Below are positions 2,239-6,110 of a stretch of 64,000 nucleotides of DNA, piece by piece. The number at the start of each line of letters is the position of its first letter. Position 1 is the first letter of the stretch. The notes under the pieces were generated by a model. It saw only the letters and a program-made list of their open reading frames with translations. It ran no database searches and was not told where the DNA came from. Both the position numbers and the translations under genes were made by a program. Source of the DNA: an uncultured Caldilineales bacterium (lineage in GTDB: Bacteria > Chloroflexota > Anaerolineae > J102); the NCBI GenBank assembly GCA_964565065.1, contig CAZMDD010000046.1, positions 5,479-69,478 of the forward strand. Reading direction: 5' to 3'.

Positions 2239-3888
2239 ATGAAACGCTCTTTGGCTGTTGCTTTTTTGTTAGCATTGCTGCTCCTTTTGGGCCCGGGAAC
2301 CACCAGTTTTGCCCAGGAACCGGATGAAGATTGGCGCATGATGCGCGTCTATTTTCAGAATCAGGCAGAACTTAATGCCCTGGCCAACCGTATTGATATT
2401 TGGGAAGTAAATCGAGAAGGAGGCTATGTGCTTACGCGGGCGCCTGCACGCGTGGGACGCACCTTGTTGCAGCAGGGATTGCATGTTTCGATGGGGCAGG
2501 GCATGGTGCATCGGCAGTATTTGGGATTGCAACTGGCCCACCCTCGCACCTGGCACGGCATTTCCGGCTACCCTTGCTACCGCACTGTGGAAGAAACCTA
2601 CGACACCTTTGCCCGCTTGGCTGAACGCTATCCCAAATTAGCTCGCTGGCAAGATGTAGGGGATAGCTGGGAAAAGGTCACGCCCGGTGGCCCCGAAGGC
2701 TACGACTTGATGGCCATGGTTCTCACCAATCAGGATGTGCCAGGTCCCAAGCCCAAACTCTTCATCATAGCAGCCATTCACGCCCGAGAATACGTCACCG
2801 CAGAATTAGCCACCCGTTTTGCTGAGCATCTGCTGGCCAACTACGGCGTCGATGCTGACATCACCTGGCTTTTGGATCATTACGAGTGCCATATCATGCC
2901 GCAGGTCAACCCGGATGGCCGTAAAAAAGCAGAAACGGGCGAGCTATGGCGGAAAAACACCGATGATGACGATGGCTGTACTTTGCCTGGCTCGGTGGGC
3001 GTCGATCTCAATCGCAACAGCAGCTTCAAATGGAATCATGGTGGTGCATCCTCAGCCGCCTGCTCCGAAATTTACCTCGGACCCGAGGCTGCGTCTGAGC
3101 CCGAAGTGCAAGCCATTCAGCACTACGCGCGCAGCATCTTTGCCGACCACCGCGGGCCCGGAGATAGCGATGCCGCACCAGATGACACATCTGGCGTTTT
3201 CATCACCCTGCACAGCTACAGCCAGTTGGTGCTTTTCCCCTGGATTTGGACCGACACTCAACCGGCGCCCAATGCCCGGCAATTGCAGACCCTGGGTCGC
3301 AAATTTGGCTACTTTAACCGCTATACCGTGTGCAGCGATTGCCTGTACAGCGCATCGGGAACCACCGATGACTTTGTGTACGGTGATTTGGGGGTGGCCA
3401 GTTACACCTTCGAGCTGGGAACCCAATTCTTCCAGTCCTGCAACTTCTTCGAGCAGGACATCATACCCAAGAACATGCCTGCGCTGCTCTACGCGTTCAA
3501 GGCGGCCCGGCAACCCTATTTGGATGCTCTGGGGCCAGATGTGCTGGATGTGACCCTGAGCGCCCCTGCTGTTGCCGCTGGCACACCTATCACCCTGACA
3601 GCCAGCGCCGATGATACCCGCTACGCCAGCGGCCAACAGGGCGAGGAACCTGTTCAGGTTCTTGCTGCGGCCCGCTACACATTGGATGCGCCCTCCTGGG
3701 AAAATGCCCCCGCGCACATCATGCGCGCCCGCGATGGCGCCTTTGATGCCACCACCGAAATCATTACCGCTCAAATCGATACCACGGGCCTGACTCCGGG
3801 GCGTCATACCCTGTTTATCGAGGCGCAAGATGCCGATGGAAACTGGGGCGTTCCCACCGCCATCTTTCTAACCATCATCGAGCCATAA
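2239..3888 (+). CDS. Secreted M14 family zinc carboxypeptidase (carboxypeptidase T-like) with a C-terminal extra domain
   Basis: A signal peptide (MKRSLAVAFLLALLLLLGP) is followed by the M14 zinc ligand motif IHAREYVTAE (HxxE), NPDGR and NRNS motifs. The start is moved to the ATG at 2239. Confidence 0.8.
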   Translation: MKRSLAVAFLLALLLLLGPGTTSFAQEPDEDWRMMRVYFQNQAELNALANRIDIWEVNREGGYVLTRAPARVGRTLLQQGLHVSMGQGMVHRQYLGLQLAHPRTWHGISGYPCYRTVEETYDTFARLAERYPKLARWQDVGDSWEKVTPGGPEGYDLMAMVLTNQDVPGPKPKLFIIAAIHAREYVTAELATRFAEHLLANYGVDADITWLLDHYECHIMPQVNPDGRKKAETGELWRKNTDDDDGCTLPGSVGVDLNRNSSFKWNHGGASSAACSEIYLGPEAASEPEVQAIQHYARSIFADHRGPGDSDAAPDDTSGVFITLHSYSQLVLFPWIWTDTQPAPNARQLQTLGRKFGYFNRYTVCSDCLYSASGTTDDFVYGDLGVASYTFELGTQFFQSCNFFEQDIIPKNMPALLYAFKAARQPYLDALGPDVLDVTLSAPAVAAGTPITLTASADDTRYASGQQGEEPVQVLAAARYTLDAPSWENAPAHIMRARDGAFDATTEIITAQIDTTGLTPGRHTLFIEAQDADGNWGVPTAIFLTIIEP

Positions 3889-4807
3889 TCAGCACAACAT
3901 CCAGCACCATGGCCGCAATGAGGATGGTGAGATGCAGCATAGAGAATTTGAAAAGCCGGAAAGATTCTTTGCGTTCACCCTGATGATAAACTTGATAAGC
4001 CAATCGCATGAACTGTGCGCCGCTCAGCAGCGCAGCTATAGCATAAAGCCAACCCGAGACTCCAAATACAGTGGGCAACAGGGTAACCACAAAAAATAGC
4101 CACGAGTAGATGAGAATTTGCCGTCGGGCTTCCTCGTCACCCACAGCCACAGGCAGCATGGGCACATCCACGCGGGCATAATCCCGTTTGATGACCAATG
4201 TCAGGGCCCAGGTGTGAGGTGGTGTCCAAAAAAAGACGATGAGGAACAGCAACCAGGCGCCTAATCCCAAACTGCCAACCACCGCGGCCCAGCCCACCAG
4301 CGCCGGAATTGCGCCAGCTACGCCGCCGATGGTCACATTGTGATGCGTACGCCGTTTGAGCAGCATGGTGTAGATGAAAACATAATACAGCGTGCCCGCC
4401 AGCGAAAGCAGCGCCGAAAGCAGATTAAGCTGAGTGGTGAAGACAACAAAGGCCAGGATATTGAGCAGTACGCCAAAAATAACGGCATTGGTTGCAGGAC
4501 GAACATGCCCGGCAGGAACGGGCCGCAGTTTGGTGCGATACATGCGCTCATCGATGTCGCTATCGAGATAATGATTGATGGCATTGGCCCCGCCCGACGC
4601 AGCAATGCCCCCCACCGTGGCCCACAAAAAGGGCATCCATCCCACATGCCCGCCCCCCGCTACCAGCATAGCGCCCCACGTGACTACCAGCAATAACAAA
4701 ATAATTTTTGGCTTCATCAAGGTAAGATAAACTTTGATGAGAGGCGGGCGCTCTTGATGCACTTGTGTAGAGTCTTGCCGAGCTTTCGATGGCGTTTTTG
4801 GGGGCAT
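3875..4807 (-). CDS. ctaB: Protoheme IX farnesyltransferase (heme O synthase, UbiA superfamily)
   Basis: A polytopic membrane protein with UbiA-type Asp-rich motifs (NHYLDSDIDERM, DYARVDVPMLP) and overall CtaB/CyoE-like sequence. The start is set at the internal Met (MPPKTP...), giving about 310 aa. Confidence 0.85.
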   Translation of the reverse strand: MPPKTPSKARQDSTQVHQERPPLIKVYLTLMKPKIILLLLVVTWGAMLVAGGGHVGWMPFLWATVGGIAASGGANAINHYLDSDIDERMYRTKLRPVPAGHVRPATNAVIFGVLLNILAFVVFTTQLNLLSALLSLAGTLYYVFIYTMLLKRRTHHNVTIGGVAGAIPALVGWAAVVGSLGLGAWLLFLIVFFWTPPHTWALTLVIKRDYARVDVPMLPVAVGDEEARRQILIYSWLFFVVTLLPTVFGVSGWLYAIAALLSGAQFMRLAYQVYHQGERKESFRLFKFSMLHLTILIAAMVLDVVLIMAR

Positions 4808-4990
4808 GAGAGCAACTTCCGGTAGGGGAGGGGGTTCGGTGCAAGATGCTGCCATTGTAGTTGAGTGTCCCTGGCTTGTCAACACATGGGACTGATGGGG
4901 ATGTAAGAGATTGTCCATTGCGCTACCCTGTGCTATGATTTGCGCCGGGTAATGATTTATCGCCCCATCAGAAACCAAGAAGGAGAGCTT

Positions 4991-5440
4991 ATGCCCACGG
5001 TGACACTGCTTAGCTACACACAAATGGATGCTGTGCAACTATCAGAAACGCCCCTTCCTGCCGGAGCGGGCACCCTGCAAGAGAACTTGATTGAGTTTGG
5101 TGGCCGTATTTGCTACCGTTCCGATGCCAACATGGGGCAGAGTCCCCGGTTTATCGACTTGCGGGTACGGGAAGGCCATGAAGATATTCTGGAACATGTC
5201 CGCTTCATTTTTCGCGTCGAGGGCCAATTGCTTGATCGCGAGGTCTTGAATCTTGTCAGTTTACCCACGGTAGAATTTACCGATTTAGGCAACGCAAGCT
5301 GGATTTTTAGCATGAATGCCCGCAATGTTCGAGATTATTGGCGTCGCTCCGATTCAACGATGGCCGCAGAATTTGCCCGGCTGGCCAGACCCATTACGCC
5401 CGCAGTCTTCCGTGATTTGCCTGTGGAGGAGGAAGCGTAA
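4991..5440 (+). CDS. ThyX-like paralog (flavin-dependent thymidylate synthase fold) that lacks the RHR substrate-binding motif
   Basis: It carries GHEDILEHVRFIFRVEG (the ThyX HGHE..EH motif) and a C-terminal WIFSMNARNV segment (cf. ThyX WTVNARSL), but it has no RHRxxS..Q.S.RY motif. Confidence 0.55.
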   Translation: MPTVTLLSYTQMDAVQLSETPLPAGAGTLQENLIEFGGRICYRSDANMGQSPRFIDLRVREGHEDILEHVRFIFRVEGQLLDREVLNLVSLPTVEFTDLGNASWIFSMNARNVRDYWRRSDSTMAAEFARLARPITPAVFRDLPVEEEA

Positions 5441-5441
5441 C

Positions 5442-5960
5442 ATGTTAAAAGCCAAAGTAACATTGTTGGGGCACACCCCCATCCAGGGCATTCCCGAGCC
5501 GGAAAAACATGGGGCTGCCAGCTTCCTCATCGAGCACATCTCCCGCACATGCAGCCATCAGATTGTACGACACCGTCTGGCCTCGTTTAGCCAGGAAAGC
5601 CAGCGTTATGTGGATTTGCAAAAAGGTGGCTGGGAGCCGGTGATTCCTCCCGCCATCGCGGCCAAGCCTGAGGCCCGGGTCGTGCTGGATGGCGCCTGGG
5701 ATGATTTGCAGGCAGCTTATCGACAACTTCGGGCCATGGGCATCCGCAAAGAAGACGCTCGTTTTTTGCTGCCCAACGCTGCTGAAACCCGTTTGGTGAT
5801 GAGTCTGCACTATCCGGGCCTGCGTCATTTCTTCTGGCTACGACTGGACAAAGCCGCTCAGTGGGAGGTACAGGATGTAGCGCATCAAATGCTGCGACTC
5901 ATCTATCCCCTGGCCCCTGCAGTATTCCAGGACATTTGGGATGTGTACGGCAATACATAA
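5442..5960 (+). CDS. thyX: Flavin-dependent thymidylate synthase ThyX
   Basis: It contains the canonical ThyX signature VRHRLASFSQESQRYV (RHRxxSxxQxSxRY) and the C-terminal FFWLRLDKAAQWEVQ region. Confidence 0.8.
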   Translation: MLKAKVTLLGHTPIQGIPEPEKHGAASFLIEHISRTCSHQIVRHRLASFSQESQRYVDLQKGGWEPVIPPAIAAKPEARVVLDGAWDDLQAAYRQLRAMGIRKEDARFLLPNAAETRLVMSLHYPGLRHFFWLRLDKAAQWEVQDVAHQMLRLIYPLAPAVFQDIWDVYGNT

Positions 5961-5967
5961 ATTTTGA

Positions 5968-6110
5968 GTTACTACTAAGGTGGCCCGGCTAGAAACCACG
6001 AAGACACGAAGCCACAAAGGCACGAAGAAAAGAAAAAGCTTTGAAATTCTTGGTGTTCTTGGTGTCTTTGCGCCTTTGTGGTGATTGAAGTCGGGTACGT
6101 TAGTAGTTAC
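5968..6110 (-). mobile_element. MITE copy 1 (about 143 bp, inverted orientation) with a perfect 8-bp target-site duplication (TSD) AATTTTGA
   Basis: The terminal inverted repeats are GTTACTACTAA...TTAGTAGTTAC. The interior is near-identical to the seven other copies. AATTTTGA sits directly on both sides (5960-5967 and 6111-6118). Confidence 0.8.

Follow-up and report, generated by a model that had tools for sequence, protein, structure and literature searches.

Two adjacent, complementary ThyX-like genes in an uncultured Caldilineales bacterium as probable subunits of one thymidylate synthase

We analyzed a 64,000-nucleotide (nt) stretch of DNA (the window) from an uncultured Caldilineales bacterium of the Chloroflexota (assembly GCA_964565065.1, contig CAZMDD010000046.1, positions 5,479 to 69,478 of the forward strand), in which two adjacent open reading frames, ORF1 and ORF2, are both homologous to the flavin-dependent thymidylate synthase (FDTS) ThyX. 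ThyX is essential in many bacteria and is a drug target. Its active site is built from three identical subunits, so that in the homotetramer the contributions of the individual subunits cannot be changed separately. In the pair described here, these contributions appear to be divided between two different polypeptides. The genes and their translation signals are as follows.

4991-5440, + strand: ORF1, 149 amino acids (aa), ATG at 4991, TAA at 5438-5440
5442-5960, + strand: ORF2, 172 aa, ATG at 5442, TAA at 5958-5960
4980-4985, + strand: ribosome-binding site of ORF1, AAGGAG, 5 nt before the ATG, read directly from the sequence
5425-5432, + strand: ribosome-binding site of ORF2, GGAGGAGG, within the 3' end of ORF1

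The initial annotation of this DNA had placed two ThyX homologs at these positions, 2 nt apart and co-translated. We found both genes as described, but only 1 nt (c5441) separates the stop of ORF1 from the start of ORF2. This spacing indicates that the two are translationally coupled, and with the ribosome-binding site of ORF2 lying inside ORF1 the claim of co-translation is supported. The motifs quoted at that time (GHEDILEH and WIFSMNARNV in ORF1, VRHRLASFSQESQRYV in ORF2) were also present.

The check proposed in the initial annotation, a search with the Pfam Thy1 profile (PF02511, 191 positions, cutoff 24.8 bits), returned both proteins above the cutoff. ORF1 scored 31.9 bits (E 1.4e-7) through residues 30-78 only, which match profile positions 9-65, and ORF2 scored 149 bits through residues 16-159, which match positions 49-190. 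With the NCBIfam equivalog TIGR02170, whose whole-protein cutoff is 87.9 bits, ORF2 lay above the threshold (123.4 bits) and ORF1 below it (29.8 bits). ORF2 lacks Thy1 profile positions ∼10-48 as well as the arginine of the N-x-R motif, and it aligns to residues 74-230 of Mycobacterium tuberculosis ThyX.

We then aligned the pair to canonical ThyX relatives that consist of one chain (217-241 aa) and come from related Chloroflexota (P0075, P0112, P0139, and P0166), and the deletions in the two proteins proved to be reciprocal. ORF1 keeps strand 1, the N-terminal helices, the GRICYRS and EGHEDILEH motifs, and strand 2. It then has a gap of ∼58 residues that removes the RHR motif, the loop binding deoxyuridine monophosphate (dUMP), and the central helices, and beyond the gap it continues with WIFSMNARNVRD and the C-terminal helices. 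In ORF2, strand 1 is followed by a gap of ∼56 residues (helices 1-2 and the GH..E motif, here GHEDII). The sequence picks up again at the histidine that precedes strand 2, and nothing is missing beyond that point. The ThyX signature RHRxxSxxQxSxRY thus occurs in ORF2 (R43-Y56) and not in ORF1. Conversely, the N-x-R arginine and the helix with GH(x)S/D..EH, through which each canonical chain completes the FAD/folate site of a neighbor, both occur in ORF1 and neither in ORF2. The alpha/beta core fold of ThyX was found, and ORF1 has the ThyX fold. The absence of the RHR and dUMP segment from ORF1, asserted in the initial annotation, was borne out by this alignment. Its description of ORF2 as an intact ThyX was not, given that the folate-loop and GH..E segment is gone and that proline has taken the place of the N-x-R arginine. 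The motifs concerned are these.

5102-5122, + strand: ORF1 G38-S44, GRICYRS, with no variation across the ORF1 family at G, R, C, Y, R, and S
5171-5197, + strand: ORF1 E61-H69, EGHEDILEH, equivalent to M. tuberculosis G68-H75 (GHFSVLEH) in an alignment to M. tuberculosis residues 34-87
5309-5335, + strand: ORF1 S107-D115, SMNARNVRD, with N109 and R111 equivalent to M. tuberculosis N188 and R190
5568-5609, + strand: ORF2 R43-Y56, RHRLASFSQESQRY, the ThyX signature, equivalent to M. tuberculosis R95-H96-R97, Q103, S105, R107, and Y108
5808-5816, + strand: ORF2 H123-Y124-P125, the site of the canonical N-x-R (M. tuberculosis N188 and R190), where proline replaces the arginine that contacts flavin adenine dinucleotide (FAD)

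When ORF1 was modelled alone, residues 41-70 (window 5111-5200), which run from the latter part of the GRICYRS loop through EGHEDILEH, had a predicted local distance difference test (pLDDT) score of 61-71, and the equivalent stretch scored 94-95 in a model of a fused two-domain protein. This segment may be ordered only against its partner domain, or the difference may reflect the alignments used.

To learn how widely this arrangement occurs, the initial annotation had suggested examining relatives. We surveyed one genome per species, kept the best 80 loci, and classed them by script. Among these 80 were 23 split loci (24 with the window pair), 52 fused loci in which both halves lie in one ORF of ∼350 aa, 4 canonical single-domain genes, and 1 incomplete locus. 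The two-gene arrangement is thus conserved in 23 other species-level genomes. The fused loci came from Caldilineaceae, Caldilinea, Litorilinea, and Ca. Fredericiella, and one more, L005, found in a separate search, brought their number to 53. The ORF1-like and ORF2-like genes were adjacent in all 24 split loci, and stop and start overlapped in 20 of them. The junction was an ATGA overlap in 16 cases, a ATGGCTAA overlap in 4, a spacer of 1-4 nt in 3, and a 401-nt insertion in the remaining one, and in most split loci a GGAGG-like sequence preceded the second start.

The fused form was also found in 7182 clusters at E ≤ 1e-3, annotated merely as “FAD-dependent thymidylate synthase”, and a profile of the ORF1 family matched 630 clusters among 1.84 billion representatives. 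In 55 of the top 147 clusters the protein was two-domain and had just one GH..EH and one RHR motif, the former upstream of the latter. An AlphaFold2 model of one fused member had a pLDDT of 90.5 and a predicted template modelling score of 0.90. The Foldseek matches were all to single-domain ThyX chains, with no solved two-domain or heteromeric ThyX among them. Sequence and fold searches of the PDB likewise returned no two-domain or heteromeric ThyX, every matching chain having 258 residues or fewer. A weak match of ORF1 to the designed ankyrin 2xeh was dismissed as chance similarity to “REGHEDI”. No stand-alone ORF1-like gene turned up in a phage collection, where the sole match was of the N-half to a canonical Gordonia phage ThyX.

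One might suppose that ORF1 is a decaying relic of a tandem duplication, or that the split stems from a frameshift or an assembly error, since ORF1 reaches only 31.9 bits on Thy1 and falls under the TIGR02170 cutoff, and since the halves form a single ORF in relatives. We found that ORF1 and the 172-aa ORF2 occur in identical form on contigs from four independent sources, namely two ENA assemblies, NCBI GCA_054029655.1, and a Logan assembly, which together with the 23 other species-level split genomes and their proper ribosome-binding sites and ATGA overlaps rules out an assembly artefact. A frameshift that broke one canonical ThyX in two is ruled out as well: both ORFs begin with the strand-1 block, they lie in different reading frames, and the ORF2 frame 5' of 5442 encodes nothing ThyX-like, in agreement with the argument made in the initial annotation. 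Nor does ORF1 look like a relic. Nearly all of its 75 homologs are ∼150 aa long (ORF2 has hundreds of homologs), and 35 columns are invariant over 43 of them, grouped in GRxCYRS, EGHEDIxEH, and W..S.NARN.RD. The pairwise ratio of nonsynonymous to synonymous substitution rates (dN/dS), for pairs with unsaturated dS, was 0.04-0.16 for ORF1 and 0.05-0.09 for ORF2. Both genes are under purifying selection. We regard a relic, frameshift, or assembly error as very improbable, and as refuted as far as sequence data allow.

Published structures assign the parts of the ThyX active site to particular subunits. In site 1 of M. tuberculosis ThyX, a structural review gives RHR 95-97 and R199 to subunit A, S71 and R190 to subunit B, and R87, Q103, S105, R107, and Y108 to subunit C, with Arg190 of subunit B contacting the FAD phosphate/ribityl (PMC6514825). 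In Thermotoga maritima ThyX, helix H3 of “monomer-3” carries the conserved H53, which stacks against either the flavin or the pterin of the folate, and residues 27-37 form the “folate loop” (2025, PMC11940539). The element carrying H53 and the folate loop both fall in the segment that is missing from ORF2 and kept by ORF1. The histidine of EGHEDILEH is the equivalent of H53, and GRICYRS, judged by the position of the motif, presumably corresponds to the folate loop, the loop after helix 1.

We tabulated the active-site residues of 71 loci (24 split and 47 fused), using M. tuberculosis numbering and checking positions against the alignments. The N-halves kept the equivalents of G68, H69, E74, N188, and R190 in 71/71 loci, and the EGHEDILEH motif was invariant both in these 71 N-domains and in 43/43 members of the ORF1 family. 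In the C-halves this set was lost, with H69 replaced by I, L, V, or P and E74 by K or H. R190 had become P, A, or another residue in 22 of the 24 split loci and in all 47 fused ones, and N188 was H or D in most split loci, yet was kept in 45 of the 47 fused loci. The C-halves in turn kept R87, R95, H96, R97, S100, Q103, S105, R107, Y108, R172, and R199 at every locus. In the N-halves, these eleven residues were deleted or substituted as a conserved set, with the exception of R95, which persisted in 12 of the 24 split N-halves.

By this table and the published subunit assignments, ORF1 has kept only the role of subunit B, and ORF2 only those of subunits A and C. Since ORF1 invariantly keeps exactly those active-site residues that ORF2 has lost, the pair appears to be a complementary split of one active site and not an enzyme with a dead copy. 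In the initial annotation ORF1 was a degenerate, non-catalytic or regulatory paralog, a description at odds with its invariant hold on the residues lost from ORF2. The suggestion, made in the same place, that the two might form a heteromer is strongly backed by the fused orthologues and the conserved pair.

The main rival to a shared active site is that ORF2 is a minimised ThyX sufficient in itself, working as a homotetramer, with ORF1 as a non-catalytic accessory, regulatory, or scaffolding paralog. ORF2 alone does carry the full ThyX signature and exceeds the equivalog cutoff, and ORF1 does lack the RHR motif and the dUMP loop. However, ORF2 is without the folate-loop and GH..E segment and without the N-x-R arginine, elements that the published structures place in the active site and derive from a neighboring subunit. 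ORF1 and its counterparts keep exactly these residues in all 71 loci, and a purely regulatory role would not need them. We therefore consider a self-sufficient ORF2 unlikely, though not negligibly so.

Our preferred interpretation, which we hold to be probable, is that ORF1 and ORF2 together make up one ThyX, as the two kinds of subunit in an obligate ORF1(2)ORF2(2) assembly with two composite active sites in place of four. A ThyX gene would have come to be present in two copies, each of which lost what the other kept. ORF2 would contribute the flavin-binding RHR motif, the dUMP-binding loop (Q, S, R, and Y), and the dUMP arginines. ORF1 would contribute the elements that the third, neighboring subunit gives in a homotetramer: the GH..E helix, whose histidine stacks on folate and flavin, the loop that follows helix 1, and the N-x-R arginine for the FAD phosphate/ribityl. 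Co-transcription and translational coupling would favor roughly equal amounts of the two subunits.

The predicted number of sites follows from the symmetry of the tetramer. In a 222-symmetric tetramer, the roles of RHR, clamp, and dUMP loop would be filled by subunits (A,B,C), (B,A,D), (C,D,A), and (D,C,B) at the four sites. If ORF2 occupies A and C and ORF1 occupies B and D, two of the sites (1 and 3) would be complete, each composed of one ORF1 and two ORF2 chains, and sites 2 and 4 would be dismantled, lacking everything essential. The two other placements of two ORF1 and two ORF2 chains would give zero complete sites. If this single arrangement is the functional enzyme, conservation should be strictly complementary, as it is. 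The fused relatives would build the same assembly as a dimer. The two proteins are thus predicted to associate physically, as a 2:2 heterotetramer with two FAD.

Several points weigh against this interpretation. The R190 arginine is still present in 2 of the 24 split C-domains, and ORF2 alone might keep some activity. The equivalent of M. tuberculosis S71, a subunit-B residue, is Asp in ORF1, as it is in the canonical relatives of the clade. Finally, the count of two sites rests on symmetry reasoning and on role assignments taken from the review of the M. tuberculosis and Helicobacter pylori structures.

It is also conceivable that the pair, or the whole two-domain family, carries out some other flavin-dependent methylation, for instance on uridine monophosphate or another nucleotide as PolB does. 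The architecture is unusual, enzymes with a ThyX fold and other substrates exist, and PolB (4p5a) was among the fold matches. Against this, ORF2 conserves every dUMP-contacting residue listed for M. tuberculosis ThyX, the closest canonical relatives, with 60-69% identity, are ordinary ThyX proteins, and the neighboring genes (UbiA, a peptidase, and proteases) offer no biosynthetic-cluster context. In addition, a thymidylate kinase (Tmk) is fused to a two-domain ThyX in one member of the family, P0329, which ties the two-domain architecture to the synthesis of thymidine mono- and triphosphate. On account of the conserved dUMP contacts, the ordinary ThyX relatives, and this fusion, the pair would be expected to have thymidylate synthase activity, and we give a different substrate only a slim chance, somewhat slimmer than that of a self-sufficient ORF2.

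P0329 (566 aa) has its thymidylate kinase domain at residues 9-199, ahead of the two-domain ThyX. Its N-half is RHR-less, with SGHESVIEH and GNARMWRNY, and its C-half carries RHRPVAISQESQRY. Its composition suggests a lineage far from Caldilineae, and the two-domain architecture may extend beyond Chloroflexota.

Canonical homotetrameric ThyX/FDTS (PF02511, TIGR02170; M. tuberculosis 2AF6, T. maritima TM0449 1O26) has the full residue set on each chain, unlike either chain of the window pair, and ORF1 and ORF2 are each 50-70 residues shorter than the canonical protein. The canonical homotetramer has four sites and four FAD and makes dTMP from dUMP with CH2H4folate and NADPH, whereas a hetero-oligomer with two complete sites is predicted here. 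A domain-duplicated ThyX in Chloroflexi was mentioned in 2009 by Valas and Bourne as “not characterized” (PMC3224940). That remark came with no residue analysis, and the Chloroflexus or Roseiflexus proteins it refers to may belong to one protein family with those of Caldilineaceae. In the literature searched we found nothing later than the 2009 remark, no residue-level division of the active site, and no description of a split form. The ∼350-aa two-domain ThyX of Caldilineaceae has the same order of halves and the same complementary residues as the window pair, its N-half being 35-43% identical to ORF1 and its C-half 55-60% identical to ORF2. It is a single polypeptide, whereas in the window pair a stop codon and 1 nt separate the two coupled genes. 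The window pair is the two-gene version of the duplicated-domain class noted in 2009.

A likeness in principle only exists with enzymes that depend on a catalytically impaired paralog for their activity, such as the trypanosomatid deoxyhypusine synthase heterotetramer (PMC3663545) and S-adenosylmethionine decarboxylase with its prozyme (PMC5201418). A duplicated gene gives rise in each case to a hetero-oligomer in which neither paralog is sufficient and the active sites lie at the interface. The fold and the pathway are unrelated to those of ThyX, and the ThyX paralogs differ from both in carrying large reciprocal deletions and disjoint sets of active-site residues.

Should the shared-site interpretation be true, the “third-subunit” folate/flavin clamp would sit on a polypeptide of its own, so that each role could be mutated or labelled alone. 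Two sites per assembly would suffice, and the pair would offer a clean example of duplicated subunits sharing one active site. In its favor as an object of study, the pair would show a three-subunit active site neatly dissected by nature, it is common throughout one bacterial class, and it lends itself to direct tests; this is tempered by the fact that the enzyme family is well known and that the fused form was noticed in 2009. For annotation, the ∼350-aa proteins, of which there are thousands, and the pairs of ∼150 aa and ∼170 aa are now labelled “FAD-dependent thymidylate synthase” or “hypothetical”. A lone gene of ∼170 aa should not be counted as a complete ThyX.

We also compared the three architectures across relatives. 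The split pair of L035/L061 was 78% and 68% identical in its two halves to canonical P0166, versus 52-60% to other two-domain proteins. The window pair was 61-65% and 65-69% identical to P0075, P0112, and P0139, again versus 52-60% to other two-domain proteins. The canonical relatives are therefore closer, in both halves, to each split lineage than the split and fused lineages are among themselves. The second halves of the N-domains had a mutual identity of only 30-32%, no higher than their identity to the canonical C-terminal parts. In a neighbor-joining tree rooted on M. tuberculosis ThyX (no bootstrap), the canonical proteins were nested inside the two-domain radiation. In one rooted on the canonical proteins (no bootstrap), the split forms were basal and the fused pair L024/L025 was nested among them.

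Because canonical relatives are closer to split lineages than two-domain lineages are to each other, the architecture of ThyX appears to have switched more than once. This could have come about by repeated duplication with parallel loss, by fission and fusion, or by reversion through a deletion that joins the halves. We put forward only tentatively, as a possibility that may well prove wrong, that ThyX in this group moves repeatedly among three forms, namely a canonical single chain, a pair of complementary genes, and one fused chain of two domains. If it does so by repeated independent duplication with the same complementary loss, the process would amount to a predictable ratchet set by the three-subunit active site. 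Alternatively, there would have been repeated reversion to the canonical form by one deletion that joins the N-half of the first copy to the C-half of the second, or the converse. By either route the pair in the window would form a naturally hetero-oligomeric ThyX that has only half as many active sites as usual.

Particular canonical ThyX proteins share lineage-specific features with particular split pairs, such as an N-terminal “SDVRYLVAQG” insertion. P0166 goes with L035/L061 in this respect, and P0075 and P0112-P0114 (L046, L057) go with the clade of the window pair.

Around the pair, scans for consensus patterns yielded four further features.

4911-4939, + strand: promoter-like site on the ORF1 side, TTGTCC-17-TATGAT with a TG extension, a pattern match only
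4854-4882, - strand: promoter-like site of the UbiA-family gene, TTGACA-17-TACAAT, 11/12, near-consensus and stronger than that of ORF1
6012-6081, + strand: imperfect hairpin 3' of ORF2, with 26-nt arms that are 77% complementary, a pattern match only
6061-6074, + strand: terminator-like stem inside the hairpin, followed by TTTGTGG, a pattern match only

The hairpin is likely the end of a two-gene operon, and because of it and the promoter-like site at 4911-4939 the pair looks like a self-contained operon of two genes. Three copies of CACGAAG lie within ∼35 nt (5997-6028) 3' of ORF2, and they overlap the left arm of the imperfect inverted repeat 6012-6037/6056-6081. The genes next to the pair encode a UbiA-family protein, in divergent orientation, an M14 peptidase, and proteases of the trypsin-like type. 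No thyA and no second thyX was found within the 64-kb window. The UbiA-family gene (protoheme IX farnesyltransferase-like; 3875-4918, - strand) is divergent to the thyX pair. In a mechanical list of ORFs it reaches a TTG at 5038 and would overlap ORF1, and gene callers place its start at the equivalent of 4918.

Individual members of the family showed some peculiarities. In the split locus L013, the 401-nt insert between the halves (2069-2469) has inverted repeats within it (GTATTGCGTATTCCGTATTCCG ... CGCAATACGCAATACGGAATACG). It resembles a small mobile or repeat element whose arrival disrupted the translational coupling. In L005 (GCA_041391105.1, 3160-4095 and 3839-4897), the fused ThyX was deposited as P0127 (298 aa), a gene call that begins 54 codons too late, and an overlapping upstream ORF of 311 aa, which has no Pfam match, was called as well. 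The full L005 ORF of 352 aa is identical to P0348 of another metagenome-assembled genome. Some two-domain thyX genes carry an insertion of ∼290 aa that has a LAGLIDADG-like domain, as seen in the fused ORFs L033, L037, L041, and L076 (525-658 aa) and in P0346, P0212, and P0336. These insertions are candidate inteins or domesticated endonuclease domains. The insertion directly follows the RY of the signature in P0346 and P0212, where it has no obvious intein splice-junction residues, and P0336 has an intein-like insertion that ends just before the RHR motif.

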